A stretch of 64,000 bases of DNA from Deltaproteobacteria bacterium (GCA_026388415.1 JAPLJV010000043.1:8478-72477), one strand, 5' to 3'; positions 28,938 to 62,918 are shown, counted from the first letter of the stretch. Notes: generated by a model not told the origin, from the sequence alone. Made by a program: numbers and translations.

Positions 28938-28938
28938 A

Positions 28939-44383: not shown

Positions 44384-44790
44384 GTATAGACGAGAAGAAG
44401 AAGTCCCTCGCCGAGCACAGGTTGATTCAAGCCGCGGAAAGTCTGGAAGAAGCCCGCTATCTTATTGAAGGTGGCAAGAGCCTTCGTTCCGTTGCGAACC
44501 GGATTTACTATGGCATGTTCTACGCGGTCTTAGCCCTCCTCATTTATGAGCCTTTTTCGTCCTCAAAACATACCGGTGTTATTGCCTATTTCAATAAGAA
44601 TTTCGTAAAACAAGGTATCATCCCGGAAGCATTGGGACGTTGCCTAAACAAGGCATTCGATTTGAGGCAGCGCGGTGATTACCGGGAATATTTTGAACTG
44701 ACTAAAGACCAGGTGGAACCGCTTCTTGATGTGGCAGAAGAATTTATTACCGCCATCAGGACGTATTTGCATGAAGGTGGCAAAATCTGA
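44380..44790 (+). CDS. HEPN-domain toxin
   Basis: 136 aa. ...SVANRIYYGMFYAVLALL...AFDLRQRGDY (Rx4-6H-like region). Confidence 0.82.
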   Translation: MSIDEKKKSLAEHRLIQAAESLEEARYLIEGGKSLRSVANRIYYGMFYAVLALLIYEPFSSSKHTGVIAYFNKNFVKQGIIPEALGRCLNKAFDLRQRGDYREYFELTKDQVEPLLDVAEEFITAIRTYLHEGGKI

Positions 44791-46123: not shown

Positions 46124-47052
46124 TTTCTTTGGTTATTCCTGTTTATAATGAAGAAAAGAACATCAAGACGCTCATGAAGCGGCTCACACCCATTATGCAG
46201 GGAATAGGCTCTCCCTATGAGATTATCCTGGTTGATGACGGCAGCTCCGATGGTTCGCTTGCCCTTTTGCGGAAGTTTGCCGACCGCCCGGAGGTCAGGG
46301 TGGTGGAGCTGACCAGAAACTATGGGCAGCACGCGGCCATCATGGCCGGTTTTTCTCTCGTCAAGGGAGAAATTGTTATCACCCTCGATGCAGACCTGCA
46401 GAATCCGCCCGAAGAGATACCCCGGCTGGTCGCCAAAATGACGGAGGGGAACTTTGATGTAGTAGGCACCATCAGGAGGGGGCGCAAGGATTCTCTTTTC
46501 CGGATACTCCCGTCCAAGGTCGTCAATATGATTACCCGCAGGATTACGGGCGTGAAACTGAGGGACTGGGGCTGTATGTTGCGGGCCTACCGCCGTCCTG
46601 TAGTCGAACGTATGATTTCCTGTCACGAGCACGCGACTTTTATCCCCGCTCTGGCCACCTATTTCGGGAAGCGGGTCACAGAGATAGAAGTAGCCCACGA
46701 GGAAAGATACGGTGGAAAATCAAACTATCCCTTGCGAAAATTGATCAACCTGCAGTTCGATCTGGTAGCCTCTTTTTCCGATTTCCCCTTGAAATTGCTC
46801 CTGTATGGCGGCGTCGGCATGGCCTTGCTGGGGACTGTTTTCGGTCTGGTTCTGGCCGTGGCCCGCCTGTCCTATGGTGCGGCCTGGGCGGCGGAAGGCG
46901 TTTTTACCTTGTTTGCTATCCTCTTTCTATTCGTGGGCATGCAATTTTTTGCCCTCGGGCTGATCGGGGAGTATATTGGCCGCATCTACCGGGAAGTGCG
47001 CAAGCGACCCGAATATGTTATTGAACAAATTTATTCTTCTGATAAATTATGA
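46120..47052 (+). CDS. arnC: undecaprenyl-phosphate 4-deoxy-4-formamido-L-arabinose transferase (GT2)
   Basis: 310 aa. SLVIPVYNEEKNI, ILVDDGSSDGS, TLDADLQNPPEEI, C-terminal TM pair. Confidence 0.92.
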   Translation: MISLVIPVYNEEKNIKTLMKRLTPIMQGIGSPYEIILVDDGSSDGSLALLRKFADRPEVRVVELTRNYGQHAAIMAGFSLVKGEIVITLDADLQNPPEEIPRLVAKMTEGNFDVVGTIRRGRKDSLFRILPSKVVNMITRRITGVKLRDWGCMLRAYRRPVVERMISCHEHATFIPALATYFGKRVTEIEVAHEERYGGKSNYPLRKLINLQFDLVASFSDFPLKLLLYGGVGMALLGTVFGLVLAVARLSYGAAWAAEGVFTLFAILFLFVGMQFFALGLIGEYIGRIYREVRKRPEYVIEQIYSSDKL

Positions 47053-47972
47053 AGACTGTCGTTTTTGCCTACCATGACATGGGTCTTACGGGGCTTACGG
47101 CCCTGCAGCGGGCCGGTCTGGAGATCGCGGCCGTTTTTTCTCATGCCGACGACCCCAAGGAGAATTGCTGGTTTGGTTCTGTGCCCGACTGGGCCCAAGA
47201 AAATAACGTTCCCCTTTTCTGTCCGGAAAACGTGAACACGGAAGCGTGGTTCGCAAAGATTTCCTGCTTGGCCCCGGAGGTAATATTCTCATTTTATTAC
47301 CGCCACCTCCTGGCAGGAGAAATTCTGACCATTCCTCCTTTAGGGGCATTCAATCTACACGGCTCCCTTTTGCCTTATTATCGTGGCCGCTGTCCCGTCA
47401 ACTGGGTGCTGGTCAACGGTGAGACGCAGACGGGCGTCACTCTGCATCGCATGGTGGATAAGGCGGATGCCGGCGCTATTGTTGCCCAACAGGCAGTGCC
47501 CATCGCCTTTGCAGATACGGCGCGAAGCCTCTATGGAAAGCTTTGCCGACAGGCAGCAGTGTTGCTAGACGAGGTCCTGCCCCTGATAAAAACGGGAACG
47601 GCCCCGCGTATCCCGCAGGATTGGCGGCAAGGAAGCTATTACGGCCGCCGCACCCCGGCGGATGGCCGTATTGACTGGCACTGGCCGGCGCTCACCATCT
47701 ACAATCTCGTCCGGGCGGTAACGGCGCCTTATCCGGGAGCCTTTACTTTTACCGCCGGTGGTGACATGATTACCATCTGGTGGGCGCAACCGGAAGACGG
47801 GGCGAGCATCGCCGGGCAGGCAGGTCAATTGCAATTAGAAAAGGGCGCCGTCCTGGTCTGTGCCGGCGAGGGACGTCTCAAACTGCTTGATGTGGAAATT
47901 AACGGTAAGCATTTGAAAAACGCTGAGATAGAAAATTATTTTACGGAAAGAGAAGGGGAAGTATTACTATGA
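47049..47972 (+). CDS. UDP-L-Ara4N formyltransferase (stand-alone ArnA N-terminal domain equivalent)
   Basis: 307 aa. [42 protein letters not shown] formyltransferase motif. Confidence 0.9.
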
Positions 47973-49006
47973 ATGTCCTGATATTAGGGGTAAACGGGTT
48001 TATCGGTCACCATTTGACGAAGTGCATCCTGGCCGAGACGGATTGGAGCGTCTATGGCATGGACCTCTCCGACGATCGGCTCGGGAAGGCCCTGGATAAT
48101 TCCCGCTTCCATTTTATTGAAGGCGATATATCCATAAACCGGGAATGGATCGAGTATCACATCAAAAAATGCCACGTGGTCCTGCCTCTGGTCGCCATTG
48201 CCACGCCGAAGCTCTATGTTGAAGACCCGCTGGCCGTTTTTCATCTTGATTTCGAGATGAACCTGAACATTATTAGACAGTGTGTAAAGTATCATAAAAG
48301 GGTGGTCTTTCCCTCCACATCGGAGGTCTATGGCGCCTGCCCGGATGACGAGTTTAGGGAAGATGAAAGTTTCCTCGTGGTCGGACCGATCAGGAAGGAA
48401 CGCTGGATCTATTCCGCCTCCAAACAGCTTCTGGACCGGGTTATCTACGCCTATGGCACACGCGGCAACTTTGATTTTACCCTTTTCCGCCCCTTCAACT
48501 GGGTCGGGCCGCGCCTCGATTCCCTCTACGCCGCAAAGGAGGGGAGCTCCCGGGTGGTCACCCAGTTTATTGCGGAGTTGCTGCTGAAGCGTCCGCTCAA
48601 GTTGGTGGACGGAGGCCTGCAAAAACGCTGCTTTACCTACGTGGACGATGGCATCGCCGCCTTGCTGAAAATACTGGAGAACAAGGACAACCTCTGTAAA
48701 AACGAGATCATCAATATCGGCCATCCCGATAACGAATGTTCCGTGAAAGAGCTCGCCACCCTTCTGAAAAATATATTCATGGCCCATCCCGATCATGTCA
48801 ATGACCCTGAATACTCGGAGATTGTGCAAATTCCCTCGGAGACTTACTACGGGAAGGGTTATCAGGACATTTATTCTCGTAAGCCAAGCATTGTCAAGGC
48901 CCGGAAACTTCTCGGCTGGACGCCATCCGTCGGGCTGGAAGACGCGTTAAAGCGGACCCTCTATTCCTTTCTGGAAGAAAATGCCGCGGAAGTCCGCTCA
49001 TCCTGA
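47969..49006 (+). CDS. UDP-glucuronate oxidative decarboxylase (stand-alone ArnA C-terminal domain equivalent, SDR)
   Basis: 345 aa. [30 protein letters not shown] (YxxxK). Confidence 0.9.
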
Positions 49007-49030
49007 GCTGGTCGAAGGAGGCATGCTCCC

Positions 49031-49891
49031 TTGAAAAAACTGCTGGGCCTGAAGATTGATGTGGATACCTACGTGGGAATGGAAAAAGGTGTGCCTTCCC
49101 TCCTTAAGGTATTGGCAAAATCGGGCTTTAAAGCAACGTTCTACCTCAGTATCGGACCAGACGCCTCCGGTCGGGCGATGCTGACGCTCTTGCGCAACCC
49201 GCTTTTTTTGAAAAAGATGTGGCGCACCAACGCCGTTGGCCTCTATGGCCTGAAAACCGCCCTCTACGGGACCCTGCTGCCTTCGCCCCTCATTGCCCTT
49301 TCCTTCCCGGACCTGGTCAAGGAGATCATTGCGCAGGGTCACGAAGTACAGTTCCATGCCTGGGATCACCGGCGCTGGCAGGATGACATTGATCGCCATT
49401 CCGCCGCCTGGATCGGCGAGTGGTTTGCCCGGGGGGTGGAAGGATTCATCAAGCTGACCGGTCAGGCGCCGACGTCCTTCGGGGCGCCGGCCTGGTTGGT
49501 GGACGAGCGGGTTATGGAGATCGTGAAGGCTTACAATTTCTTATATTTAAGCTGCACCCGGGCTAAAGAACCGTTCATCCATGAAGGTTGCGGCCTCGTC
49601 GAGATACCTTCCGATTTGCCCTGTCTGGAGGAGATGGGTGCGGAGCGCGGCGCCGACATCATCGCCGGTATATTGCAGTCGGGGGGCATGCACGTCTTGC
49701 CCCTCCATGCCGAGGTGGAAGGCGGCATCCGGCAGGACTGGTTTGTTAAGCTAATGGAGAAGGTCGTGGCGATGGACTATCGGGCCGTACCCCTCGGCGT
49801 CATCCATGCCGAGCTGGCGCAGGAGACCCTGCCAATCCGCAAATACCGGATTGCGATGCTGGCCGGACGGGCCGCCCCCTGCGCCATTTGA
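49031..49891 (+). CDS. arnD: 4-deoxy-4-formamido-L-arabinose-phosphoundecaprenol deformylase (polysaccharide deacetylase family)
   Basis: 286 aa. LKIDVDTYVG..., GHEVQFHAWDH. TTG start assumed. Confidence 0.88.
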   Translation: MKKLLGLKIDVDTYVGMEKGVPSLLKVLAKSGFKATFYLSIGPDASGRAMLTLLRNPLFLKKMWRTNAVGLYGLKTALYGTLLPSPLIALSFPDLVKEIIAQGHEVQFHAWDHRRWQDDIDRHSAAWIGEWFARGVEGFIKLTGQAPTSFGAPAWLVDERVMEIVKAYNFLYLSCTRAKEPFIHEGCGLVEIPSDLPCLEEMGAERGADIIAGILQSGGMHVLPLHAEVEGGIRQDWFVKLMEKVVAMDYRAVPLGVIHAELAQETLPIRKYRIAMLAGRAAPCAI

Positions 49892-49950: not shown

Positions 49951-50223
49951 ATGGCAGTCAAGGTGCACGTTCATACCACTCATACGCAATTTACCGATGG
50001 CCTGGAGATTGTTGCCACAGAAGGAAAAACAGTGGCCGAATGTCTGGCACAGCTAATCAGGCAGTTCCCCGGCATGGAGAAGGCGCTTTTTGCAAAAAGA
50101 GATAAACTGCTAAACACGGTTGAAATTTATGTAAATAATGCCAGCGCATACCCCGATGAACTCGGCAAGGCCGTTAACGATGGCGACGATATCCACCTTT
50201 TTGTCATGCTTTCGGGAGGATAG
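49951..50223 (+). CDS. MoaD/ThiS-family ubiquitin-like small protein ending in Gly-Gly
   Basis: 90 aa. ...IYVNNASAYPDELGKAVNDGDDIHLFVMLSGG*. AAAGGAG SD. Confidence 0.75.
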   Translation: MAVKVHVHTTHTQFTDGLEIVATEGKTVAECLAQLIRQFPGMEKALFAKRDKLLNTVEIYVNNASAYPDELGKAVNDGDDIHLFVMLSGG

Positions 50224-50259
50224 GGGCAATGACGCTGCTTGCGCCGCCCCTATTCTGCA

Positions 50260-51975
50260 CTAGGATCGCGCCTTATTGGTCTCCGGCCAATCAATCGCCA
50301 GTGTCTCCGGGTTGATGATAACGCCATAGTCGGCACCGGCGCTTGCTATGCTGACATAACCCTCGGTCACATCGCTTAACACCATCTCGGGATCGCGGGC
50401 GAGCGGATTGCCGTAGCCGCCGCCGCCGGGGGCGTCAATGGTCACCACGTCGCCCGGTTGCAACCGCGTTAATCCATAGGCATTACCTGATTCTCCGTTG
50501 ACCAGGAACTGTGCCCTGGCGCCGGGCTTGCCGTCAAAAAGCCCTTCCGCCGCGTAGACAAACCGGCCCGCCTGGATACCCAGATTGACGGGCGGGAGGG
50601 GGGCATATTCGTCGTCGGGCACGCGGAATAGTTCCCTTTTGCCGAGGCCGCCCTTCATCTTGCCGGGGCCGCCCGAATCGGCGAGCAGTTCTCTCTTCTC
50701 CACAATCAGCGGGGTGTCGCTTTCAAAGATCTCCACGGGCGTATTGGCGCCGTTGGCCGGGAAGATGTAGACGTAATTCCCGTCATTGCTGGCGCCTGCC
50801 CCCATGCCGCCTCCCCGGATGATCACGGAATGCCAGGGCTTACCGTCTTTCCTTTTCCCGTAAAACACGTTCATGGCCGCCGGCGTGCCGCCTGATCCGG
50901 CAATGACGCTGCCGGGCAGGACACCGGAAAGGCCCCGGTAAATGACTTCCGTGATGAAATGACCAACCACGAGACGTGCAGCCACGGCGGCCGGAAATTT
51001 GCAGTTGACCACGCTGCCCTCCGGGGCGCGCAGGCGTATCGGCTTGGCGCAGCCTTCGTTATTGGGGATATCGGGGGCAAACATGCTCTTGATCGCCATG
51101 AAGACATAGGCATAGGTGAAATTATAAACCACGTTGCCGCCCCAATTCACCTGCCCCGAAGAGCCGGTGAGGTCCACGCTGATGTCGCTTCCCTTGACCT
51201 CGATCTTGGCCTGAATAATAATGTCTTCCTTGGCCTTCATCTGCTCGACAATGCCTTGGGCCGGATAGATGCCGTCAGGGATTTTCTCGATTTCCTTGCG
51301 CATGCTTTTCTCGGTGAGGCTGATAATCTGGTCCGCCAGGTCATCGAGGCTGGCAAGGCCGCTTTCTTTGAGCATCTGGCAAATCTTATCCGCACAGACG
51401 TGATTTGCCGCGATCTGCGACCGGATATCCCCGATCACCTCATCGGGCGTCCGGACATTCCACCGGATCATATCCATGACTGACTCGTTCAGTACTCCCC
51501 GGTCATAGAGCTTCACGACGGGAATAAACAAGCCTTCTTCAAAAACATCCTGATTATCGGACGATACACGGCCGCCGATGTCGGAGTGGTGAAAAACGCA
51601 GGCCGTGAAGGCGGCCAGTTTACCCTCGTAAAAGATGGGGCTCATGACACAGACATCATTAAGATGGCCCGCCAGTGCCCAGGGGTCATTCGTGATGAAG
51701 GCATCGCCGGGTTGGTAGTAGTCCACGGGGAACCGGTTGACGAGATTCTTGACCCCCAGGGCCATGGCGCCTGACTGGCCCGGTGTGGCAAAGCTACCCT
51801 GGGCCAGTTCCCGTCCTTTCCGGTCGGTAAACATGCAGGTGTAATCATGGGCATCCCGGAGCAGGCTCGAAAAGGCCGTCCGGGCGACGCTGCCGTCAGC
51901 CTCATCTACAATGGAAATAAGCCGGCGCCATAATATCTCTAACGTGATGGGATCGAAAGTCTGCCCCATTTTCAT
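50260..51975 (-). CDS. hyuB: hydantoinase B/oxoprolinase-family protein
   Basis: 571 aa. DPITLEILWRRLISIVDEA..., RDAHDYTCMFTD..., GGGYGNPLARDPEMVLSDV. Confidence 0.92.
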   Translation of the reverse strand: MKMGQTFDPITLEILWRRLISIVDEADGSVARTAFSSLLRDAHDYTCMFTDRKGRELAQGSFATPGQSGAMALGVKNLVNRFPVDYYQPGDAFITNDPWALAGHLNDVCVMSPIFYEGKLAAFTACVFHHSDIGGRVSSDNQDVFEEGLFIPVVKLYDRGVLNESVMDMIRWNVRTPDEVIGDIRSQIAANHVCADKICQMLKESGLASLDDLADQIISLTEKSMRKEIEKIPDGIYPAQGIVEQMKAKEDIIIQAKIEVKGSDISVDLTGSSGQVNWGGNVVYNFTYAYVFMAIKSMFAPDIPNNEGCAKPIRLRAPEGSVVNCKFPAAVAARLVVGHFITEVIYRGLSGVLPGSVIAGSGGTPAAMNVFYGKRKDGKPWHSVIIRGGGMGAGASNDGNYVYIFPANGANTPVEIFESDTPLIVEKRELLADSGGPGKMKGGLGKRELFRVPDDEYAPLPPVNLGIQAGRFVYAAEGLFDGKPGARAQFLVNGESGNAYGLTRLQPGDVVTIDAPGGGGYGNPLARDPEMVLSDVTEGYVSIASAGADYGVIINPETLAIDWPETNKARS

Positions 51976-54068
51976 ACCTCCTTAAGATCAATCCACAGAA
52001 ATCCGAACTCATCCGTCGTTGCGCGGGCATCCTCGCCCACAATGAGGGTTGACTCCTTCTCTTCGATAATGGCCGGACCTTGAAACTGAGCGCCGGGAAA
52101 GAGTTGATAACGATCGTAAACCGTATAGGGGATAAAATCCTTAGCCAGCGGCGAGTAGGCCTGGCGTTTTCCCTTAATCGCCTTGCTTAACGTCTGCCCT
52201 TTAGTTACCGCAAGTTTGGGCAGTTGCAGGAGCCGCTCCGGCAGGCTGGCCCGCACCTTGAAATTGATGAACTCCACCTCCGATTCCGGATAGGTCCGGC
52301 CGTAGAGCTTCTCATAGACATCGTCGAATAATCTCCGCACGTCCGTTCGCTGGAGTTTAGTGAAGTCACCGGCCGGCACAGGAACATTGATCTCCGCCCC
52401 CTGTCCCACAAAGCGCATGTCGAGAGATCGTTCATAGCGGATAATATCGTCGGCGGCTTCCTTCTTGAGTATTTTCGCCGCCTCCGCCTCCAGCCCCCGG
52501 AAGATGGCCTCTATCTCCGGAAAGGCGACGCCGGACAGGGAAACCTTGTGGCTGCGGAGGAGGTCAAAGGCCCGGGGGGCGGTGAAAAAGCCCATGGCCG
52601 AACCAACCCCGGCATTCGGCGGGATCAGCATCCGGGGGGCGCCGAGTTTCTTCGCCAGACCGTAGGCGTGAACCGGACCTGCCCCGCCAAAGGCGGATAT
52701 CGTTACGATCCTCGGGTTTCCGCCTTTTTCCGCAATATGCGTCTTGGCGGCCCCCGTCATCGTCTCGTTGATGAGATCATGGATCCCCCAGATAGCCTGG
52801 ATAAAGGAAACTCCGAGTGGCTTGGCAATTTTTTCTTCCACGCCGCGCCGGGCCGCCTCCTTGTCTAACTTCATCCCGCCGCCGAGGAAATATTTCTCGT
52901 CCAAATAACCAAGCAGCAGATCGGCATCGGTCACGCAGGGATCAGTTCCCCCTCTCCCGTAACAGATGGGTCCGGGCGCCGCGCCGGAACTTTCCGGCCC
53001 CACCTGCAGCGTGCCCATCTTGCTTACCTTCGCGATGCTGCCGCCGCCCGCTCCGATCTCCATCAAATCAACAACCGGCACCTGGATAGTGATACCACTG
53101 CCCTTCATGAAACGCTGGACACGTCCGACCTCGAAGGTCGGCACAACGCCGGCGACGCCTTTCTGGATCAGGCAGGACTTGGCCGTCGTGCCCCCCATAT
53201 CGAAACAGAACATCTCCGAGATATTGAAGTGCTTGCCATAGTATTGGCCGGCAATGACCGCCGCGGTCGGTCCCGACTCGATGATGCGGACGGGAAACTC
53301 GGCCGCCGTTTCAACCGATGTCACCCCACCGCTCGAAAGCATGATAAAGAGCTTGCCCTGAAAGCCGATGGACTTCAGCCGGCCGGCCAGCTTGGACAGA
53401 TATCGCCCCGTCAGGGGCTTGACGTAGGCATTGGTAACGGTGGTAGAGGTTCTCTCATACTCCTTGATCTGCGGCAGTACGCGGTAGGAAATCGACACGG
53501 AAACCCCTGGCGCTTCACTCGCGATGATCTCTTCGAGCATCAGCTCATGGGTTGGATTTTCAAAGGAGTTAATGAGACAGACGGCAATAGACTCGACACC
53601 CATCTTGAGGAGGGCGCGGATGGTCTGTCTTGCTTCTTCCGGGTCCAGGGCTTTGATAACGCTCCCATCGCTGCGGACCCTCTCGTCCACTTCCAGGCGA
53701 TACCTTCTGGGAACCAGCGGCTGGGGAAACTCGGCAAATACGTCATAGGGGGCGTAGCGCATCTCGCGGCCAATTTCCAGGATGTCCCGGAAGCCCTTGG
53801 TCGTGATGAGCCCTGTCCGGGCGCCCTTTCTCTCGATGATGGAATTGATGACTAAGGTTGTGCCATGAATCAGCTCCTCCAACCGGGCGATAAAGTCCGG
53901 CGCCGTCTTTTCCAGCTCTCTGATCCCCTCTTCCACGGCATCGGAGGGATCACCAGGAGTGGTCAGGCACTTGCCGGTCTTGATCTCCCCGGTTTGATCG
54001 TTCAGCAGGACAAAGTCGGTAAACGTGCCGCCGATGTCACAGCCCAGCCGGTAATGCTTGTCTTTCAT
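51972..54068 (-). CDS. hyuA: hydantoinase A/oxoprolinase-family protein
   Basis: 698 aa. YRLGCDIGGTFTDFVLL..., FDMGGTTAKSCLI... 4-nt overlap with hyuB. Confidence 0.92.
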   Translation of the reverse strand: MKDKHYRLGCDIGGTFTDFVLLNDQTGEIKTGKCLTTPGDPSDAVEEGIRELEKTAPDFIARLEELIHGTTLVINSIIERKGARTGLITTKGFRDILEIGREMRYAPYDVFAEFPQPLVPRRYRLEVDERVRSDGSVIKALDPEEARQTIRALLKMGVESIAVCLINSFENPTHELMLEEIIASEAPGVSVSISYRVLPQIKEYERTSTTVTNAYVKPLTGRYLSKLAGRLKSIGFQGKLFIMLSSGGVTSVETAAEFPVRIIESGPTAAVIAGQYYGKHFNISEMFCFDMGGTTAKSCLIQKGVAGVVPTFEVGRVQRFMKGSGITIQVPVVDLMEIGAGGGSIAKVSKMGTLQVGPESSGAAPGPICYGRGGTDPCVTDADLLLGYLDEKYFLGGGMKLDKEAARRGVEEKIAKPLGVSFIQAIWGIHDLINETMTGAAKTHIAEKGGNPRIVTISAFGGAGPVHAYGLAKKLGAPRMLIPPNAGVGSAMGFFTAPRAFDLLRSHKVSLSGVAFPEIEAIFRGLEAEAAKILKKEAADDIIRYERSLDMRFVGQGAEINVPVPAGDFTKLQRTDVRRLFDDVYEKLYGRTYPESEVEFINFKVRASLPERLLQLPKLAVTKGQTLSKAIKGKRQAYSPLAKDFIPYTVYDRYQLFPGAQFQGPAIIEEKESTLIVGEDARATTDEFGFLWIDLKEV

Positions 54069-54084
54069 TGATACCTCCCCCTAC

Positions 54085-55713
54085 CTAAAATAAACCCGGT
54101 TCTGCAAACTCCCCAAATACATTCCGGAAAATACTTGTCATCTCGCCTACCGTAGCGTAGGCCTTGCAGCAACCTACCAGATAGGGCATGACGTTTTTGC
54201 CCGCCCGGGTCGCTTTCTCCAGCTCCTGAAGGGTGCGGGTCGTCTCGCGCTGGTCGCGTTCCCGCTTGACCCGCCTTAATTCCTCAATCTGCTTCTCGGC
54301 TGTCTCCCCGGTATATTCGTGCAGTTCCACGTCCTTCGACTCTCCCTCGGTATAGATATTGACGCCCACCTTGAGGAGCTCCCCGGACTGGATTCCCTTT
54401 TCGAATTCGTAGGCCTGCTGAGAGACAAGCTTTTGGATATAGCCCGTGGCGACTGCCGGGACAATCCCGCCCACCTTCTCGATTTTTGCCATTTCCTCCT
54501 CGATCTTCCCTTCCATCTCCTTCGTCAGCGTCTCGATAAAGTAGCTTCCCGCCAGCGGATCAACGGTATCCCGCAGGCCGATCTCGTCCATGAGGAGCTG
54601 CAGGGTCCGCAGCGAGATAACGGCCGAGTGGGGGGTCGGAATGGTATAGGCCTCGTCGTAGCTGCACAGGGCGGTAGTCTGAGCCCCGGCCAGGGCAGCG
54701 GAGAGGGCGTAATAGGCGCCGCGCATGATGTTGTTCTCGGGCTGCGCCTTGGTAAGGCCGTAGCCGCCGCCGCCGAAGAGCCCGCGCATGAACATGTTGG
54801 CTTCCTTCTTGACGCCGTATTTTTCTTTCAGGTTCCTCGCCCAGAGTTTCCGGGCGGCCCGGAACTTCGCTACCTGTTCCCAGATATTGCCGAAGACATT
54901 AAAATTAAAGGAGAACCGGCCCACAAATTCGTCAACATCATAGCCGCGCGGCAGGACATTATCAATGTAGGCATTGGCAATCAAAATGGCATAGCCGATC
55001 TCCTGCGCGGGAGTAGCCCCCGATTCCCGGATGTGATACCCGCAGATGGAAACCGGATTGGTGCGCGGCATGGTGGTCATGGAATATTCGATGGTATCGC
55101 CGATAAGCTTCACCGCCGGCTCAACGGGGAAAACCCAGGCCCCCCGGCCGATCATTTCCTTCAAGATATCGTTTTGCGGCGTCGCGGAAATCACCTTGGC
55201 GTCATAGCCGTACTTTTCGGCCACGGCCTGGTACATGGCCAGCATAATCGAGGCCACGGCGTTGATGGTCAAACCGGAGCCGATCTCGGCCAGATTGATG
55301 TCCTTGAAGGCGACTTCAAAGTCGCGCAGGGAATCAACCGCCATGCCCACACGCCCCACCTCTCCTTCCGCCATGGGGTCATCAGAGTCATAGCCCATCT
55401 GGGTGGGCAGATCAAAGGCTACGTTCAAACCTGTCTGGCCGTGGGCGATCATCAATTTGAAACGTTCGTTCGTCTCGTAGGACGTCCCGAAACCCGTGTA
55501 TTGTCGAGTTGTCCAGGCCCGGCTGCGGTAGCCCTGGCGATGGATGGCCCGCGTAAAGGGGTAGGCGCCGGGATCGGCCAGGTCTTTTTCATAGGAAAAA
55601 CCGACCCGCTCCAGATCCCCGGGACCGTAGAACGGTTTGACATGGATGCCCGACTGCAGGGTCACATCAGTAATCTGGCCTTTCGCATCCTTGGTATACT
55701 TTGCTACGCCCAT
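54085..55713 (-). CDS. B12-dependent acyl-CoA mutase, large (substrate-binding) subunit
   Basis: 542 aa. PFTRAIHRQGYRSRAWTTRQYTGFGTSYETNERFKLMIAHGQTGLNVAFDLPTQMGYDSD is the MCM-family TIM-barrel signature. No fused B12 domain. Confidence 0.92.
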   Translation of the reverse strand: MGVAKYTKDAKGQITDVTLQSGIHVKPFYGPGDLERVGFSYEKDLADPGAYPFTRAIHRQGYRSRAWTTRQYTGFGTSYETNERFKLMIAHGQTGLNVAFDLPTQMGYDSDDPMAEGEVGRVGMAVDSLRDFEVAFKDINLAEIGSGLTINAVASIMLAMYQAVAEKYGYDAKVISATPQNDILKEMIGRGAWVFPVEPAVKLIGDTIEYSMTTMPRTNPVSICGYHIRESGATPAQEIGYAILIANAYIDNVLPRGYDVDEFVGRFSFNFNVFGNIWEQVAKFRAARKLWARNLKEKYGVKKEANMFMRGLFGGGGYGLTKAQPENNIMRGAYYALSAALAGAQTTALCSYDEAYTIPTPHSAVISLRTLQLLMDEIGLRDTVDPLAGSYFIETLTKEMEGKIEEEMAKIEKVGGIVPAVATGYIQKLVSQQAYEFEKGIQSGELLKVGVNIYTEGESKDVELHEYTGETAEKQIEELRRVKRERDQRETTRTLQELEKATRAGKNVMPYLVGCCKAYATVGEMTSIFRNVFGEFAEPGLF

Positions 55714-55721
55714 TTCGCCTC

Positions 55722-56120
55722 CTATCCTCTTCTCACATTTTCCTTGATTACACTGACAATCTCCGCGAACGGCGTCCCGCCCGGGAAGACGCCCTGCACC
55801 CCCAGTTCCTTGAGCTTCGGGATGTCGCGGCCGGGGATTACCCCCCCTACAACAACCATCTTATCGCCAATTCCCGCCGCGCGGGCCTTCTGTACGAGTT
55901 TCTCCGCGATGGGGATATGGGCGCCGCTCATGATGGAAAGCCCGATTACATCCACATCCTCCTGGAGGGCAACCGTAACAATCTGATCCACCGTTCTATG
56001 CAGGCCCGTGTAGATGACCTCCATACCCGCCTCCATGAGCGCATGCGCCACGACTTTTGCCCCGCGGTCATGCCCGTCAAGTCCCGGTTTCGCTATGAGT
56101 ATCCTGATATTTCTTGCCAC
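55722..56120 (-). CDS. acyl-CoA mutase small subunit (cobalamin-binding domain)
   Basis: GTG at 56120 lies 8 nt after AAGGAGG. RILIAKPGLDGHDRGAKVVA contains the DxHxxG B12-binding motif. Confidence 0.88.
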   Translation of the reverse strand: MARNIRILIAKPGLDGHDRGAKVVAHALMEAGMEVIYTGLHRTVDQIVTVALQEDVDVIGLSIMSGAHIPIAEKLVQKARAAGIGDKMVVVGGVIPGRDIPKLKELGVQGVFPGGTPFAEIVSVIKENVRRG

Positions 56121-56146
56121 TGTTATCGCCTCCTTACCCCGATGAA

Positions 56147-56422
56147 CTATCCGTATCTGTACTGGACGCCGCATCCATCGGCCGGGTAAACCCAGTCTAC
56201 TGACTTATAGATGCACGCAATCTTGCAGCTTCCGCATTCCAGGCAGCCCGCATATTCCACGACCATTTCGCCTGTCTCCTCATTCAAGGAATAGAGGTGC
56301 CCCGGACACACGGGGATGCACATCCGCTCCGGGCAGGTACCGCAGATTTTCTGGTCGAGTTTGATATGGCTCTCGCGATCGTTTTTCATCGCGTTAAGCG
56401 CTATCTTTTCTGCCACTTTCAT
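56147..56422 (-). CDS. fixX: ferredoxin-like protein FixX
   Basis: ATG at 56422 lies 2 nt after the fixC stop. CPERMCIPVCPGHLY...GCLECGSCKIAC. Confidence 0.88.
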   Translation of the reverse strand: MKVAEKIALNAMKNDRESHIKLDQKICGTCPERMCIPVCPGHLYSLNEETGEMVVEYAGCLECGSCKIACIYKSVDWVYPADGCGVQYRYG

Positions 56423-56424
56423 GA

Positions 56425-57714
56425 CTACATTTTCCTCATGCTTAACAAGTCCTTGCACGCTTCCCAGTTGAGGATATATTTCCTGGCGACCGCCTTGGCG
56501 CTTGCGTACAAGGGCTCTTTTTTACCCGGGCCGATGGTGAACAATGCCGCGAGCAGTTCGGAAATGAATTTGGGATAAACGGTGAAGAGTCTTTTATTTT
56601 CGAGCACATCTCTGGTGTGACGGAAGGTCTCCATATCAGCAAGCACAAAACTAGCCCGGAGCTTCTGCTCGTAGCGGGAGAGGAAAGCTGCCGACAGGTC
56701 CCCCTGGGTCAGGGCTTCATCGGCCACCCCGGCGGCTATTGCCCCCGAGGCAACGGCAAATTCCATGCCCCTTACCGTCAACCCGAGATTGAGTGAGAAA
56801 CCGGCGGCATCGCCGGTGACGAGCATTCCGCCCGTGTAAAGCTTTGGAACACCCCCTGCTCCGGCCTCAGAAATGATATGGGCCGCGTATTCCTTCAGCT
56901 CACCCCCTCGTATCCATCGCTGCACCTCCGGCCGCGCTGAAAACTCCTCCATGAGCTGGGAGGCGGCAACAGGATTCTTCTGCTTGATCAAGTCGCCAAT
57001 GCTTACGACGATCCCCAGGGAGAGCGTATCGCGATTCGTATAGAGAAACCCGCCTCCGAACATGCCCTTGGTAATGGCGCCGACAAAGAGATTGGCGGCC
57101 CCTTCCCCCGGTTGCAGGCCGAAACGATCTTCGATGGTCTTTGCGTCCAGCCGGTAAATTTCCTTGACGGCCACGGCGTAGTTGCGCGGTTCCAAGGGCT
57201 CTCTGAGACCGGCCTTTTCCGCCAGGAAGGAGAGCGCCCCGTCGGCTGCGATGACGATATGGGCACCGATCTCTTCGTCCCCCGCCTTGATCCCCGCCAC
57301 GCGGCCATCTTCCCACAGGAGTGCATCAACCTTCTTTTTCGGGATAACAAAGGCACCCTTTTCGCCCACTTTTTCCGCGAGCCAACTGTCGAAGGTCGCC
57401 CGCAGCACGGTATAGCTCATGTAGGGCTCGCGGCGCCAACTGTCATTGGCATATTCTAACTGCACGGATGCGTCCTCATCGAGCACCGTGATGATCTCTT
57501 TCACGACATGCCGTTCAAATGGCGCCTCCGCAATGATCCCGGGAAGATATTCCCTGATGGGCTCTACATACATTCTGCCGCCCGTCACATTTTTACTCCC
57601 CGGAACGTCTCCCCGCTCCAGGAGTATTACCTGCCGACCGGCATCGGCGAGATGGTAGGCCGCCGTTAATCCGGCCAATCCCCCACCTACGATGATTGCA
57701 TCCACTTTGTCCAT
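56425..57714 (-). CDS. fixC: FAD-dependent ETF:quinone-type oxidoreductase FixC
   Basis: 429 aa. DAIIVGGGLAGLTAAYHLA dinucleotide fold. Context etfBA-fixCX. Confidence 0.9.
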   Translation of the reverse strand: MDKVDAIIVGGGLAGLTAAYHLADAGRQVILLERGDVPGSKNVTGGRMYVEPIREYLPGIIAEAPFERHVVKEIITVLDEDASVQLEYANDSWRREPYMSYTVLRATFDSWLAEKVGEKGAFVIPKKKVDALLWEDGRVAGIKAGDEEIGAHIVIAADGALSFLAEKAGLREPLEPRNYAVAVKEIYRLDAKTIEDRFGLQPGEGAANLFVGAITKGMFGGGFLYTNRDTLSLGIVVSIGDLIKQKNPVAASQLMEEFSARPEVQRWIRGGELKEYAAHIISEAGAGGVPKLYTGGMLVTGDAAGFSLNLGLTVRGMEFAVASGAIAAGVADEALTQGDLSAAFLSRYEQKLRASFVLADMETFRHTRDVLENKRLFTVYPKFISELLAALFTIGPGKKEPLYASAKAVARKYILNWEACKDLLSMRKM

Positions 57715-57737
57715 TGAGTATATCTATGGGAATCAGT

Positions 57738-58715
57738 CTATTTCCCGCGCCTTTTTCTCAGTTCCTCAGTCATCGCCGGCAACACCTCAAAGAGGTCTCC
57801 CACGATACCGTAATTTGCGTAGTTAAAAATGATAGCATTCGGATCATTATTGACGGCCAGGACGACCTTGGAGGTGTCCATTCCCATGATATGGTGGATC
57901 GCACCCGAAATGCCCGCCCCCAGATAAAACTTCGGCGAAACGGTTTTCCCGCTTTTGCCGATCTGGTCGGCCTGATCCCGCCACTTGGCATCCACGATGG
58001 ACCTCGTTGCCCCTACGGTGGCGCCGATAGTAGCGGCCAACTCTTCGATGAGCCGGAAATTCTCGGCGGCTTTCAGCCCCCGGCCACCGGCCACAATCAG
58101 GTCTGCCTCCGTCAGGTCAACTTTGCCCAGGGTGGTCTCCTCGGTCTTGATGACTGTCGTCTTTAACTGCGCAGGTGTGATGCCGGCCTGAAATTCTGCC
58201 AACTCCCCTTTTTTGGCAAGAGGTTCACCCACTGCGAAGCTATTGGGCCGCGTCGTCACGATAATTGGAGAAGCGGAAAAAGAGACCTCGGCCAGGACCC
58301 TGCCGCCGTACATGGGTCGGACAAACGTCAGGGGGTCTTTGTCCCAGTTGGCTGCGGTCACATCCGAGGCAATGCCCGTCTCCAGGAGCACTGCCACCCG
58401 TGGCAGGAAGTCGCGCCCCCGCTGCGTAGCCCCGGCCAGGATCAGCTTCGCGCCTGCCTCCCGCGCGTAACCGGCCAGCGCCAGTGCATAGCCCTCGGCC
58501 GTGTAGCTCTCCAGCACGGGGTCCGTAACGTGGATGAGCTTTTCCGTATAATTAAGAACCTTTTCCTTTACCGTGCCGGACAGCTTCCCCAGAAACACGG
58601 CTTCCATGCTGAACCGCCCGCTTCCGGCAAGCTTCAAACCTTCCGAAAGCATTTCCAGGGAAACCTTCCGCGGCTCGTCACCCTTGGCCTCTACAAATAC
58701 CAGTATCTTATCCAT
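57738..58715 (-). CDS. etfA: electron transfer flavoprotein alpha subunit
   Basis: 325 aa. [11 protein letters not shown]..., [27 protein letters not shown] FAD-binding signature. Confidence 0.93.
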   Translation of the reverse strand: [325 protein letters not shown]

Positions 58716-58720
58716 ATATT

Positions 58721-59503
58721 TTATAATACCCTTTCTACGTCCATCAAAATCCTTACCGCTTCCACAGCGGCCTCGGCAGGCGTACCGGGAATGAGCTGCA
58801 CGGCGGGTTTTTTCTTCGGCAGCGAGTATTGCACCACCTTTACCTTCGACCCTGTCCGGCCGGTCTGATCAGCCGTAAGCCCCAGGTCGGCGGCCTTTAC
58901 TCTCGCTACCTGAACCTTCATGGCCTTCATAACACCCGTAATCAGAGGGACTCGCGGTTCGTTCAGTCCCTTCTGAGCGGTAAATACTGCGGGCAACTGC
59001 ACTTGCACCGTCTCTTTGCCCCCCTCTACAGCAACCTCCGCGATGGCCTTACCATCAGCCACATCAAGCTTCACAATCCCGCCTACATGCGGCAGTCCCA
59101 GCAACTGGGCTACCATCTGCCCGACTTCTCCGCGATCAGCGTCAATAGCCTGCCTGCCACAGAGAATGATATCAAAGGGTTCTTTGGCTATGGCCCGACT
59201 CAAGGCAAGCGCCGTCGCATACCCGTCGCCGTCTAAAAAAGCCTCGTCCTCCAGGAGCACCGCTTCGTCGGCTCCCATGGCAATGCCGGTCCTCAAGGCC
59301 TCAATTGCCTTCCCGCTCCCCAGGGCCACAACCTTCACTTTTCCAGGGTGTTTCGCTTTGATCCGCAGTGCTTCTTCAATGGCAAATTCGTCAAACAGGT
59401 TCAAGGCAAACTTCTGTTCTATATCGAGACTTACCCCGTCGCCGCCGATAGCCACCAAAGCTTCCGGGTCCGGGATCTGTTTTACCAGAACAACAACGTT
59501 CAT
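58721..59503 (-). CDS. etfB: electron transfer flavoprotein beta subunit
   Basis: 260 aa. MNVVVLVKQIPDPE..., FDIILCGRQAIDADRGEVG. Confidence 0.93.
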   Translation of the reverse strand: MNVVVLVKQIPDPEALVAIGGDGVSLDIEQKFALNLFDEFAIEEALRIKAKHPGKVKVVALGSGKAIEALRTGIAMGADEAVLLEDEAFLDGDGYATALALSRAIAKEPFDIILCGRQAIDADRGEVGQMVAQLLGLPHVGGIVKLDVADGKAIAEVAVEGGKETVQVQLPAVFTAQKGLNEPRVPLITGVMKAMKVQVARVKAADLGLTADQTGRTGSKVKVVQYSLPKKKPAVQLIPGTPAEAAVEAVRILMDVERVL

Positions 59504-59736
59504 AACCGTCTCCTCCTGATTCAGGACAATTATCTTAACCAGTAATCTTCTTGCGGTGCTCCTAACATTTTTACCTTAAAGTGACAACAAAAAACTATGA
59601 AGCCTTGATAAATTTTTATAAATGCTTAAATTTTAGTCACGTAGGATTTAGATCACCAACCGCAGGCTGGTCGAGGAAGCGCTGGAAGAAGATAATGATT
59701 ATCTGAAATTGTTTGCCGAGTGCGGGTAGGGAGGCG

Positions 59737-61737
59737 TCACATCTCCAGCAGTAAAGCGGAAAGTTCCTTGATCCGATCCCGGAGCTCGGCCGCCTTTTCG
59801 AAATTGAGCTCCCCGGCGGCTTCCTTCATTTCTGCCTTCAGCTTGCGGATGATTTCCGGCAGTTCCTTTTCCGACATATAGGCGGCGTTTTTTTCGTCCA
59901 CTGTGGGCACTTTGAGATAGTCGGCTTCATAGACGGAAGCGAGGATATTATGGATTGACTTGCGGATGCTCTCGGGCGTAATGCCGTTTTGCCTGTTATA
60001 GTTAGCCTGGATATTCCGTCTTCTTTCCGTCTCCCGCAGGCAAACCGCGATGGAATCCGTTATCTTATCGGCGTACATGATCACCTGACCGGCAACGTTT
60101 CGCGCTGCCCGGCCACTGGTCTGGATCAGCGAGCGGGCGGAACGGAGGAAGCCCTCCTTGTCCGCATCCAGGATCGCGACGAGCGATACCTCCGGGATGT
60201 CCAGCCCTTCCCGGAGCAGATTCACCCCGATCAGGGCATCGAACTTGCCCAGCCTCAGGTCACGGATGATGTCCACCCGGTCCAGCGTATGCACATCGGA
60301 ATGGAGATACTTGACCTTGACGCCCAAGCCCTCGTAGTAGGAGGTCAGATTTTCCGCCATCCTCTTGGTCAGCGTCGTAACTAGTACGCGTTCGCTCTTT
60401 GTTGCCCGTTCCCTGATCTCGCCCAGGAGATCGTCCACCTGGCCCTCGACGGGCCTGATCAAAATAACCGGATCCATGAGCCCGGTCGGCCGGATGATCT
60501 GCTCCACCACGGTTCCCCCGGCTTTATCCAATTCCAGGACGGCCGGGGTGGCGGAGACATAGATCCTCTGATTCGGCAGCGCTTCATATTCTTCAAAGCG
60601 GAGCGGCCTGTTGTCCAGCGCCGAAGGCAGGCGAAAACCGTATTCCACAAGCGTCGTCTTGCGGGACCGGTCACCCCGGTACATGCCGATCAATTGGGGG
60701 AGAGTGGCGTGGCTTTCGTCAATGACGACCAAAGCGTCGGCCGGAAAATATTCCATCAGGGTGGGCGGCGGCTCGCCGGGCTTTCTGCCCGTCAGGTGGC
60801 GGGAATAATTCTCGATACCCTGACAGTAGCCCATCTCCTCCATCATTTCGATATCGAAATGCGTGCGCTGCTCCAGGCGCTGGGCCTCGACGAGTTTGTT
60901 GAGCCCGTTTAATTCCCGGAGCCGGAGCCCCAGCTCATCCTGGATCGCCACAATGGCCCTTTTAAGATTATCCTTCGTCGTCACATAATGGCTGCTGGGG
61001 TAGAGGGCAATCTTGGTCAGGCGGTCCAGCTTTCTGCCGCGCAGCGGGTCAATCAGAGAAATAGCCTCAATGTTGTCTCCGAAGAACTCGATCCGGATCG
61101 CCCTTTCCTGTTCGTAAGGGGGGAAGATCTCGACGATGTCTCCGCGCACCCGAAAAGTGCCGCGGTGAAAATCAATGTCGTTGCGTTCATACTGCATTTC
61201 AACGAGACGGTGGAGCATGGTATCGCGGGCTATATCCATTCCTTCCGCCAACGCCAGCAGCATGCCGTGGTAGGTCTCGGGGGAACCGAGCCCGTAGATG
61301 CAGGAAACGCTCGCGACAATGATGACATCGCGGCGTTCCAGGAGGGAATGCGTGGCGCTGTGGCGCAGCTTGTCAATTTCGTCATTGATGGCCGAGTCTT
61401 TTTCGATATACGTATCCGTGCTGGGAAGATAGGCCTCGGGCTGGTAGTAATCGTAGTAACTCACGAAATACTCGACGGCATTTTCGGGAAACAGCAGCTT
61501 GAATTCACCGTAAAGCTGGGCAGCCAGAGTCTTGTTGTGGGCGATGATCAGGGCCGGCCGCTGTACCGCCTCAATGACATTGGCGATCGTGAAGGTCTTG
61601 CCCGAGCCAGTGACGCCGAGGAGCACCTGATGGCCCGCGCCCCCCTCTATCCCGGCCACCAGCTTGGCAATCGCCTGGGGTTGATCGCCACTGGGTTTAT
61701 ATTCGGAAAAAATTTTAAATTTCTGCATTCTCGTCAC
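59737..61737 (-). CDS. uvrB: excinuclease ABC subunit B
   Basis: 666 aa. [12 protein letters not shown] Walker A, DESH box, beta-hairpin [11 protein letters not shown]-terminal UVR domain. Confidence 0.97.
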
Positions 61738-62030: not shown

Positions 62031-62918
62031 ATGGGAATGGATCGAAGGACTTTTCTAAAGGGAATGGGAGCAGGGATCGCGGCGGCAGTACCGGGCAGTT
62101 CCCTGCTGACAGGCAGCCTGGAGGCCAAAGAGGTTGCCGCCGGTAAGAAATTTATGGGAGTTCTTGTTGATACCACGCGGTGTATCGGCTGCCGCAGTTG
62201 CGAGGCGGCCTGCGCTGAGGTGAATGCGCTGCCGATCCCGGATATAGGTGATACATCGGCATTGAATAAAATCCGTAAGACATCTGTAACGCAATTGACC
62301 GTGGTCAATCGCTACAAAACGGACAAAGGAGAGGTTTTTGCGAAGAAGCAATGTATGCACTGCAATCAGCCCGGCTGTGTCTCGGCCTGCCCGGTTAATG
62401 CGATGAAAAAGAGGGTGGACGGAGCGGTTACCTGGGACACCAATTGCATGGGTTGCCGGTTTTGCATGGTTTCCTGCCCCTTTGACATTCCCAAGTTTGA
62501 ATATCAGAGCGCTACCCCCAAAATCCTGAAATGCACCCTCTGCTGGGAGAGACTTAAGAAAGGACAAAAGCCTGCCTGCGTGGAAGCCTGTCCGGCGGAG
62601 GCCCTCACCTTCGGCGCCCGGAGGCAGCTCATTGAAGAGGCAAATCACCGAATCTACACGGAATCAGGGAAATATATCTCCCACATTTACGGAGAGCACG
62701 AGGTAGGCGGCACCGGGTATCTTTATATTTCCGCGGTTCCATTTGAACAGATCGGCTTCCGGACCGATCTGGGGACAACCTCTTATCCAGAGTTCAGCAA
62801 GGGATTTCTCTATTCTGTTCCCATTGTCCTGCTTCTCTGGCCTGCATTTTTGATCGGAGTAAAAACCATGACCAGTCGGAAAGATGAACTTCAAAGCAGG
62901 GAAGGAAGGGAAAAATGA
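62031..62918 (+). CDS. Tat-exported 4x[4Fe-4S] ferredoxin subunit, HybA/NrfC/DsrO-like
   Basis: 295 aa. Twin-arginine MGMDRRTFLKGMG, CIGCRSCEAAC, CMHCNQPGCVSACP, CMGCRFCMVSCP, CTLC...CVEACP. C-terminal TM. Confidence 0.85.
   Translation: MGMDRRTFLKGMGAGIAAAVPGSSLLTGSLEAKEVAAGKKFMGVLVDTTRCIGCRSCEAACAEVNALPIPDIGDTSALNKIRKTSVTQLTVVNRYKTDKGEVFAKKQCMHCNQPGCVSACPVNAMKKRVDGAVTWDTNCMGCRFCMVSCPFDIPKFEYQSATPKILKCTLCWERLKKGQKPACVEACPAEALTFGARRQLIEEANHRIYTESGKYISHIYGEHEVGGTGYLYISAVPFEQIGFRTDLGTTSYPEFSKGFLYSVPIVLLLWPAFLIGVKTMTSRKDELQSREGREK

Follow-up and report, generated by a model that had tools for sequence, protein, structure and literature searches.

A trimmed gene block, probably of the iaa type for anaerobic indoleacetate degradation, with a FixCX-linked electron-transfer flavoprotein in a Syntrophales-type deltaproteobacterium

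Eight consecutive open reading frames (ORFs) occupy positions 50260-59503 on the minus strand of a 64,000-nucleotide stretch of DNA from Deltaproteobacteria bacterium (GCA_026388415.1, JAPLJV010000043.1:8478-72477; the whole stretch is hereafter called the window). In order, they encode the two subunits of an electron-transfer flavoprotein (ETF; etfB and etfA), FixC, FixX, the B12-binding small subunit (mutS) and the large subunit (mutL) of an acyl-CoA mutase, and the two subunits of a hydantoinase-like enzyme (hyuA and hyuB). Judging from gene content, orthology, synteny, signature residues and selection, all of which were observed directly, the block is probably a cut-down iaa cluster, of the kind that serves to degrade indole-3-acetate (IAA, auxin) independently of oxygen. 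A preliminary description of the window had listed the same eight genes, and all ORFs, their order and their domains were confirmed by the Pfam and NCBIfam profile searches used here for domain assignment; it had also correctly named the enzyme chemistry, namely an ATP-dependent HyuAB-type enzyme, a split B12 acyl-CoA mutase and an EtfAB-FixCX electron outlet. Its further proposal, that the combination belongs to an uncharacterised pathway, is not supported, because the same arrangement has already been assigned to the iaa pathway (PMC8360864, PMC8453981), an outcome that the description itself had named as refuting, and because close relatives with 95% and 90% mutase identity carry the missing genes beside the same eight genes.

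Gene inventory shared with iaa clusters

The iaa cluster of Aromatoleum aromaticum and A. evansii encodes an indoleacetate-CoA ligase (IaaB), a phenylsuccinyl-CoA transferase (IaaL), a phenylsuccinyl-CoA/benzylmalonyl-CoA mutase (IaaGH) and a dehydrogenase that oxidises and decarboxylates benzylmalonyl-CoA (IaaF) (PMC8360864), as well as a heteromeric hydrolase of the hydantoinase-like type, with subunits of 707 and 564 aa (IaaCE), for which ATP-dependent ring opening of 2-oxoindoleacetate has been proposed (PMC8453981); the locus is given as iaaABCDEFGHIJKLMPQR (PMC9613470). In the IaaF subclass, GGG replaces the YEG that is catalytic in other acyl-CoA dehydrogenases, and every member is encoded within an indoleacetate cluster; ETF genes of their own are also reported for the iaa operons predicted in Desulfatiglans anilini, other sulfate reducers and Ferroglobus placidus (Schuehle et al. 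2021, PMC8360864).

The block shares with the cluster of A. aromaticum EbN1 and A. evansii KB740 a two-subunit hydantoinase-like hydrolase, with 698 aa in HyuA and 571 aa in HyuB against 707 aa in IaaC (Q5P602) and 564 aa in IaaE (Q5P600), and a two-subunit B12 acyl-CoA mutase, whose genes lie directly upstream of hyuA with a gap of 16 nt. Close relatives of the block additionally share with that cluster a GGG dehydrogenase, a family III CoA-transferase, a PaaK-like ligase, a xanthine dehydrogenase (XDH)-family molybdenum (Mo) enzyme, a solute-binding protein or transporter, and regulators. However, the window has only four of the catabolic genes, and it adds EtfAB and FixCX, whereas ETF genes are absent from the denitrifier cluster. 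The window also belongs to a Syntrophales-type deltaproteobacterium rather than to a betaproteobacterium.

Close homologues of the large mutase subunit are very numerous; they are 83-95% identical to it among the best 120 listed, where the named sources are Syntrophales, Syntrophus, Syntrophorhabdaceae and Deltaproteobacteria and the annotation is 'methylmalonyl-CoA mutase'. A search of 1.84 billion representative sequences gave 150 representatives, and the clusters of ten of these, when looked up, bore nothing but generic 'methylmalonyl-CoA mutase' names; a search of a plasmid collection returned nothing above 46% identity. For comparison of gene neighbourhoods, we used the best 80 loci from one mutase scan of representative genomes, all of them deltaproteobacterial and 71-95% identical in the mutase, drawn from Syntrophaceae, Syntrophorhabdus, Desulfatiglandales, strain NaphS2, Desulfobacteraceae, Desulfobacula, Desulfomonilaceae and Desulfarculaceae (NaphS2 and Desulfatiglandales are represented by loci L074 and L028). 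The window proteins were mapped on these loci, all locus ORFs were clustered, and recurrent neighbours were typed with Pfam and NCBIfam. The B12 small subunit adjoins the large subunit in 69 of the 80 loci. Linkage was counted in the 31 loci that extend for 8 kb or more to both sides of the mutase orthologue: hyuA is a neighbour in 29 of them, a PaaK-like CoA ligase in 23, an acyl-CoA dehydrogenase and a family III CoA-transferase in 22 each, the XDH-family Mo enzyme in 21, ETF genes in 15-16 and fixC in 8. At least one of hyuA, dehydrogenase, CoA-transferase, ligase and Mo enzyme is present in all 31. MeaB, a GntR/FCD regulator and a tripartite ATP-independent periplasmic (TRAP) transporter recur as well, and there are one to three acyl-CoA dehydrogenases per locus. 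Furthermore, the catabolic genes are linked to their own etfBA in the NaphS2, Desulfatiglandales and Desulfobacteraceae loci, as in the iaa operons of strict anaerobes with a dedicated ETF.

The mutase-linked dehydrogenases carry the signature of the IaaF subclass. All but one of the 42 full-length sequences contain ...LL(Y/F/N)GGG(T/S)..., the exception having AGG (a 43rd linked sequence, an N-terminal fragment without the GGG region, was left out of the count), and in a pairwise alignment the GGG of the dehydrogenase from locus L086 aligns to the YEG of C. difficile Bcd. The inventory and the GGG signature shared by the relatives of the block thus make it a probable iaa-type cluster. Several loci (L011, L013, L008, L016 and L087) carry two or three GGG-type dehydrogenase paralogues in tandem, which fall into two sequence types, ...LLFGGGTSEILKTII... 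and ...LLYGGGTHEIIKDFLGR....

The Mo enzyme of the relatives consists of three subunits (FAD, 2x[2Fe-2S] and molybdenum cofactor) of the xanthine-dehydrogenase family. NCBIfam holds no Iaa-specific models, and the matches of the relatives' ligase, transferase, dehydrogenase and Mo enzyme are all under equivalog cut-offs. From the subunit sizes, 4-hydroxybenzoyl-CoA reductase was considered for the Mo enzyme and discarded, the alpha subunit scoring 661 bits against a cut-off of 995; a route combining this reductase with the ligase and a nicotinate-type fermentation were likewise considered and rejected.

A distal operon segment kept by selection

One of the closest relatives, L086 (a Joint Genome Institute (JGI) metagenome; 95% mutase identity), carries a divergent TRAP transporter gene, a CoA-transferase gene and a GGG dehydrogenase gene, the last directly before etfB, followed by etfB-etfA-fixC-fixX-mutS-mutL-hyuA-hyuB. 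Locus L087, from a Syntrophus sp. assembly (90%), also has MeaB, extra dehydrogenases, GntR, and a PaaK-like ligase and Mo enzyme directly downstream of hyuB. The window block is colinear with L086 (86% DNA identity) and L007 (83%) over 9.3 kb, which is beyond what chance would give; operon conservation, which the preliminary description had proposed to check, shows in this colinearity and in the frequent mutase-hyuA linkage. DNA homology between the window and L086 is limited to 59536-50267, that is, from 33 nt before etfB through the end of hyuB, and its left end falls, in L086, just past the stop of the dehydrogenase gene. These limits imply that the window holds the distal eight genes of a ten-gene operon, on unrelated flanks. 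An independent contig, L006 (95% identity), likewise starts 33 nt before etfB. The junction at this position may be a recurrent rearrangement or an assembly break point.

All eight genes are intact, and their ratios of nonsynonymous to synonymous substitution rates (dN/dS) relative to L086 are 0.05-0.13, at dS values of about 0.46-0.78; for etfB, the amino acid identity is 84.6% and dN/dS is 0.13. The low ratios indicate that purifying selection has maintained the whole block, even the genes for ETF and FixCX, which have no local dehydrogenase partner. Indeed, as the preliminary description had noted for the operon, no CoA ligase, CoA-transferase, acyl-CoA dehydrogenase or MeaB is encoded in the block, and the same is true for the entire 64-kb window, where no GGG-type acyl-CoA dehydrogenase, family III CoA-transferase, PaaK-like ligase or XDH-family Mo hydroxylase was found.

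The trimmed content leaves room for another substrate handled by the same chemistry, such as plant-derived 2-oxindole-3-acetate taken up directly, another oxindole or lactam acid, or an arylsuccinate, for which the ligase and the Mo hydroxylase would be unneeded. In the window, L086 and L007, neither a ligase nor a Mo hydroxylase lies within 10 kb, as such a substrate would predict, and the mutase and GGG dehydrogenases of L008 and L016, which stand without HyuAB beside an aminotransferase and a saccharopine-dehydrogenase-like gene, suggest that the module has been reused. However, the Syntrophus locus L087 has the ligase and the Mo enzyme directly after hyuB, the window proteins are 82-95% identical to their counterparts in complete clusters, which argues for the same substrate, and the absent genes may lie elsewhere in the genome. 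We therefore regard a related substrate as unlikely, and IAA as the probable one.

The loci L008 (5815-19769) and L016 combine the same mutase (86-87% identity) with MeaB and two GGG-type dehydrogenases, without HyuAB, ligase or Mo enzyme within 10 kb; they carry a glyoxalase-fold protein, a saccharopine-dehydrogenase-like protein, a class III aminotransferase, two Fe-S proteins, GntR and a TRAP binding protein. This variant cluster may serve another arylsuccinate-type substrate.

The B12-dependent mutase

The large mutase subunit (IaaG-like, 542 aa; 54085..55713, minus strand) matches PF01642 (MM_CoA_mutase) with 575 bits. The small subunit (IaaH-like, 132 aa; 55722..56120, minus strand, the ORF extending up to 56174) matches Pfam B12-binding and TIGR00640 (144.7 bits), and bears the DxHxxG motif in the form DGHDRG. 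Among solved structures, the large subunit scores best against the 2-hydroxyisobutyryl-CoA mutase (HCM) subunit HcmA (4R3U, 438 bits), then human methylmalonyl-CoA mutase (MCM; 336 bits), P. shermanii MCM (293 bits) and IcmF (167 bits), with IcmF-type scores of 167-209 bits overall.

At the specificity positions, the large subunit reads RQ-Y72-TGF (Ile in HCM), A99 (Asp117 in HCM), IG-R190-GAW (Gln in HCM) and Y226-H227; Tyr72, Arg190 and Tyr226 do not vary across 78 orthologues, 99% of which also have His227. The isobutyryl-CoA mutase (ICM) signature, in which Phe and Gln replace MCM Tyr89 and Arg207, is absent from the window subunit, which has Tyr72 and Arg190 instead. Likewise absent is the HCM signature, which we take to be Ile90, Asp117 and Gln208 (numbering after the HcmA structure paper, positions from the 4R3U alignment) and in place of which stand Tyr72, Ala99 and Arg190. 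The label 'IcmA/HcmA-like' used earlier for this subunit is accordingly apt for the split architecture but not for the substrate residues; the active-site comparison that had been suggested places the latter with the Tyr/Arg of MCM, not with the Phe/Gln of ICM or the Ile/Asp/Gln of HCM.

The window mutase shares the fold and B12 chemistry of MCM (P. shermanii 1REQ, human 2XIJ) and keeps the equivalents of Tyr89, Arg207 and Tyr243-His244, of which Tyr89, Arg207 and His244 bind the carboxylate and the thioester of the MCM substrate. However, it is split, has QM for HR after 'FDLPT', scores 436.6 bits with the MCM equivalog NF006944 against a cut-off of 876, and has LFGGGGYGL where MCM has HCQTSGWSL. 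In this segment, F313, G314-317 and G319 are invariant among the 78 orthologues, and among 150 family representatives (50% clustering) only the three nearest, P0121, P0122 and P0126, possess the poly-Gly stretch. Strictly speaking, the mutase does not belong to MCM, ICM or HCM. Given the conserved MCM-type Tyr/Arg pair, its substrate is expected to be an acyl-CoA with a free carboxylate, which fits (2-aminophenyl)succinyl-CoA and (2-aminobenzyl)malonyl-CoA, and the Gly-rich segment at 313-319 probably gives space to the aryl group.

The same protein bears on the idea that the block merely juxtaposes three unrelated functions: an ordinary MCM of propionate or succinate metabolism, a 5-oxoprolinase or hydantoinase, and a FixABCX bifurcating complex. 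The source annotations of the large subunit as 'methylmalonyl-CoA mutase' and the presence of the MCM Tyr, Arg and Tyr-His are what such a juxtaposition would predict, but the score at half the MCM cut-off and the replacement of QTSGWS by GGGGYG are not, and the mutase is linked to hyuA in 29 of 31 loci from several bacterial orders, neighbours IaaF-type dehydrogenases instead of propionyl-CoA carboxylase, and belongs to a colinear block with gaps down to -4 nt. We consider a chance assembly of this kind very improbable.

The hydantoinase-like hydrolase

The last two genes of the block encode the large subunit of a predicted ATP-dependent lactam hydrolase (HyuA, IaaC-like, 698 aa; 51972..54068, minus strand), with Hydant_A_N, Hydantoinase_A and Hydant_A_C domains, and its small subunit (HyuB, IaaE-like, 571 aa; 50260..51975, minus strand), with a Hydantoinase_B match of 489 bits. 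Both resemble hydrolases of lactams and hydantoins more closely than they do carboxylases, as a comparison of the kind that the preliminary description had called for reveals: HyuA and HyuB score 416 and 237 bits against N-methylhydantoinase (7HK5) and 355 and 187 bits against caprolactamase (6YRA), versus 311 and 95 bits for acetophenone carboxylase and 235 and 64 bits for acetone carboxylase. Caprolactamase also ranks first in NCBIfam, under the cut-offs (527 vs 1000 and 237 vs 1000 bits), and the acetophenone carboxylase models remain far under theirs (ApcC, 321 vs 1500 bits; ApcD, 107 vs 1500 bits). No genes for carboxylase gamma or epsilon accessory subunits were found in the block by ORF and domain survey. 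With CapAB (6YRA) and N-methylhydantoinase (7HK5), HyuAB shares the two-module architecture and the proposed ATP-driven hydrolysis of a lactam C-N bond; it differs from CapAB in falling under the caprolactamase cut-offs, and its substrate is presumably an oxindole lactam. The best reading of these comparisons is a lactam hydrolase, like the proposed IaaCE.

A ketone route, in which an acetone/acetophenone-type ATP-dependent carboxylase would feed a 2-hydroxyisobutyryl-CoA-type mutase, can draw on HcmA as the best solved match of the large mutase subunit (438 bits) and on the distant relationship of HyuAB to acetone and acetophenone carboxylases, but is the least credible alternative, with Tyr72, Ala99 and Arg190 at the HCM positions Ile90, Asp117 and Gln208, no gamma/epsilon subunit gene in the block, hydrolase scores (416/237 and 355/187 bits) above those of the carboxylases (at most 311/95) and an ApcC score of 321 bits against 1500.

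A FixCX-linked electron-transfer module

The first half of the block encodes all four subunits of an EtfABCX/FixABCX complex. EtfB, the small or beta ETF subunit (260 aa; 58721..59503, minus strand), matches Pfam ETF at 1.7e-39 and contains the motif GRQAIDADRGEVGQ; EtfA, the large or alpha subunit (325 aa; 57738..58715, minus strand), matches Pfam ETF and ETF_alpha and has no ferredoxin domain. FixC (417 aa; 56425..57678, minus strand, ORF up to 57714) is an ETF:quinone-oxidoreductase-like flavoprotein of the NCBIfam PRK10015/FixC subfamily (389 and 354 bits), with Thermotoga FixC (7KOE_C, 234 bits) as the best structure and a weak match to ETFQO_UQ-bd, the quinone-binding domain of ETF-QO. 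FixX (91 aa; 56147..56422, minus strand, ORF up to 56458) is ferredoxin-like (NCBIfam FixX, 1.7e-12) and Cys-rich, with CxxCxxxxCxxxCP and CxxCxxCxxxC.

The structures nearest to EtfA are those of bifurcating complexes (CarE 6FAH, 210 bits; 5OL2; 4KPU; 7KOE), with full-length alignment, whereas human and Paracoccus ETF align only with the C-terminal part, from residues 63-84 onward. At the second-FAD site, EtfB has DADRGEVGQ, against DGDTAQVG in the bifurcating CarD and Acidaminococcus fermentans EtfB and DNDMNATG or DDDCNQTG in non-bifurcating ETFs; as the comparison was confined to these references and did not extend to a solved EtfB of the FixA type (7KOE_A), the weight of the deviation is uncertain. 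The DADRGEVGQ-type motif is present in every FixCX-linked locus with a readable motif (the window and the Syntrophales/Syntrophorhabdaceae loci); in L049 (Desulfarculaceae), fixC is present and the EtfB motif was not found. A short EtfA followed by FixCX occurs in the window, in Syntrophorhabdaceae and in one Desulfarculaceae locus. The module thus has the four subunits of the EtfABCX/FixABCX of Thermotoga maritima (7KOE) and diazotrophs in the same order, and an EtfA of the bifurcating lineage, but it departs from DGDTAQVG at the flavin/AMP site of EtfB and is tied to a catabolic acyl-CoA dehydrogenase pathway, not to nitrogenase or NADH oxidation.

The iaa loci of the sulfate-reducer type, unlike the window, have an EtfA with an N-terminal 2x[4Fe-4S] domain, an EtfB with DGDTAQIGP and no FixCX. 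In eleven such loci (L030, L036, L039, L042, L043, L045, L050, L056, L058, L074 and L079), etfB/etfA lie upstream of the mutase, and EtfB carries the bifurcating-type DGDTAQ(I/V)GP; their EtfA, which was not recovered in L045, is about 396 aa long, with a ferredoxin domain as in CarE and LctC. The iaa-operon ETFs of strict anaerobes have been called 'non-bifurcating ETF paralogues' (PMC8360864), a label with which, as far as motifs can tell, a bifurcating-type EtfB and a ferredoxin-domain EtfA sit uneasily.

Proposed pathway

The substrates, the electron path and the completeness of the pathway in the window organism are what we infer from the Aromatoleum literature, whose enzyme roles were assigned to the scheme by orthology and synteny. 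IAA would be taken up and activated by the PaaK-like ligase (IaaB). The Mo hydroxylase would then act at C2 of the pyrrole ring to give the lactam 2-oxoindoleacetate or its CoA ester; Ebenau-Jehle et al. reportedly described, in 2012, a molybdenum dehydrogenase yielding 2-oxo-IAA as the first step. HyuAB (IaaCE-like, 50260-54068) would open the lactam with ATP to (2-aminophenyl)succinate or its CoA ester, and the family III CoA-transferase (IaaL) would put CoA on the right carboxyl. The B12 mutase (IaaGH-like, 54085-56120) would convert (2-aminophenyl)succinyl-CoA to (2-aminobenzyl)malonyl-CoA, an aryl analogue of the succinyl-CoA/methylmalonyl-CoA reaction, in which Tyr72 and Arg190 would hold the free carboxylate. 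Oxidation and decarboxylation by the GGG-type dehydrogenase IaaF would yield 2-aminocinnamoyl-CoA, and beta-oxidation would lead from there to 2-aminobenzoyl-CoA. In the simplest mechanism, the IaaF electrons would pass through the dedicated EtfAB and FixCX to menaquinone. The window encodes only the ring opening, the mutase step and the electron outlet of the IaaF step; the remaining genes must be located elsewhere in the genome or be missing.

Several points weigh against the assignment to the iaa system. First, iaaF, iaaL, iaaB, the Mo enzyme, MeaB, a transporter and a regulator are all absent from the 64-kb window, so that the pathway is not readable as complete there. Second, the proposed orthology to the A. 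aromaticum cluster is based on which genes are present, on the sizes of their products and on the motif of IaaF instead of a direct alignment, and the activities of IaaCE and IaaGH have been proposed in the literature, not shown with purified enzyme (PMC8360864, PMC8453981); it is for these two reasons that we call the assignment probable and no more. Third, ETF was not used in vitro by the IaaF of A. aromaticum (WP_011236983) (PMC8360864), and the role of ETF in strict anaerobes is therefore putative. Finally, L008 and L016 pair the same mutase and GGG dehydrogenases without HyuAB, so that the module can serve another substrate.

Layout of the block and other features of the window

For fixC, fixX and the small mutase subunit, start positions (57678, 56422 and 56120) were taken from gene calls on identical public contigs. 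With these starts, the intergenic gaps are 5, 59, 2, 26, 8, 16 and -4 nt, close to the range of -4 to 26 nt given previously. Upstream, uvrB (59737-61737, same strand) is separated from etfB by an AT-rich spacer of 233 nt (59504..59736, minus strand), which by its position is the presumed promoter region of the block, although a sigma-70 consensus scan of the minus strand upstream of the block gave no convincing site. On the downstream side, the block is followed by a ThiS-like ORF, which is convergent, and by an arnB/C/A/D-like operon. Between hyuB and the ThiS-like ORF, after the hyuB stop, a repeat search identified an 11-bp inverted repeat (50217..50256; 91% complementary, 18-nt loop), a possible terminator with no T-run behind it on the minus strand. 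Consensus scans for promoters and terminators did not rise above chance, and neither the block nor its surroundings gave an Rfam match to a riboswitch or any other RNA.

Elsewhere in the window, an arn-like set for lipid A aminoarabinose (44978-49891, plus strand) comprises a DegT aminotransferase, a GT2 glycosyltransferase, a formyltransferase, an NAD epimerase/dehydratase and a polysaccharide deacetylase, with a PMT_2 (ArnT-like) glycosyltransferase upstream (38625-40364, plus strand). At 43979-44790 (plus strand), in a stretch of GC content 0.38, a nucleotidyltransferase-domain ORF (134 aa) adjoins a HEPN-domain ORF (136 aa), resembling a HEPN/MNT toxin-antitoxin pair. GC content is 0.38-0.47 at 1-2000, 12000-20000 and 42000-44000, against 0.52-0.58 elsewhere in the window, and these low-GC stretches may be islands; the one at 12000-20000 begins beside a tRNA gene (12019-12090), and an ORF of 448 aa (12425-13771) has no Pfam match at the 1e-08 cut-off. 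Three tandem tRNA genes (3865-4144, minus strand) lie beside seryl-tRNA synthetase (4175-5455) and MurJ (5542-7137). A type II secretion/type IV pilus-like set (25138-38484, plus strand) includes a PilM-like protein, a secretin (32269-34497) and a T2SSE ATPase (34512-36302). An Fe-S protein with a twin-arginine translocation (TAT) signal (62031-62918, plus strand) has its best match in HmcB of the sulfate-respiration Hmc complex (349.5 bits, under the cut-off of 420), which fits a Thermodesulfobacteriota host.

Discussion

The block is probably an already known kind of system, in trimmed form, in a Syntrophales-type bacterium. What goes somewhat beyond the literature consulted is the variant of ETF linked to FixCX, the splitting of the cluster and the mutase signature, in which F-GGGG-x-G plus Tyr and Arg would mark an IaaG-type mutase. 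The trio of HyuAB, B12 mutase and ETF would serve as a signature of anaerobic auxin/indoleacetate breakdown, which would explain an apparent mystery operon, and the block would be an example of an iaa cluster split into modules.

The two ETF solutions found on IaaF-type dehydrogenases bear on how IaaF is re-oxidised. A bolder proposition, to which we give little credence at present, is that the auxin pathway of Syntrophales and Syntrophorhabdaceae took a FixABCX-type complex instead of the ferredoxin-domain ETF of sulfate reducers, and that the block is a self-standing transcription unit apart from IaaF and IaaL. If EtfABCX were the physiological oxidant of IaaF, this would explain how benzylmalonyl-CoA dehydrogenase is re-oxidised without oxygen; the electrons could go straight to menaquinone or take a confurcating route with ferredoxin or NADH, and the block would show how a syntroph disposes of them. 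Bolder still would be a block that acts on 2-oxindole-3-acetate supplied from outside, which would make the ligase and the Mo hydroxylase unnecessary.

The assignment of the block to the iaa system would extend the pathway to Syntrophales and Syntrophorhabdaceae, typical syntrophs of methanogenic sediments, groundwater and digesters, where tryptophan-derived indoleacetate may be a regular substrate.

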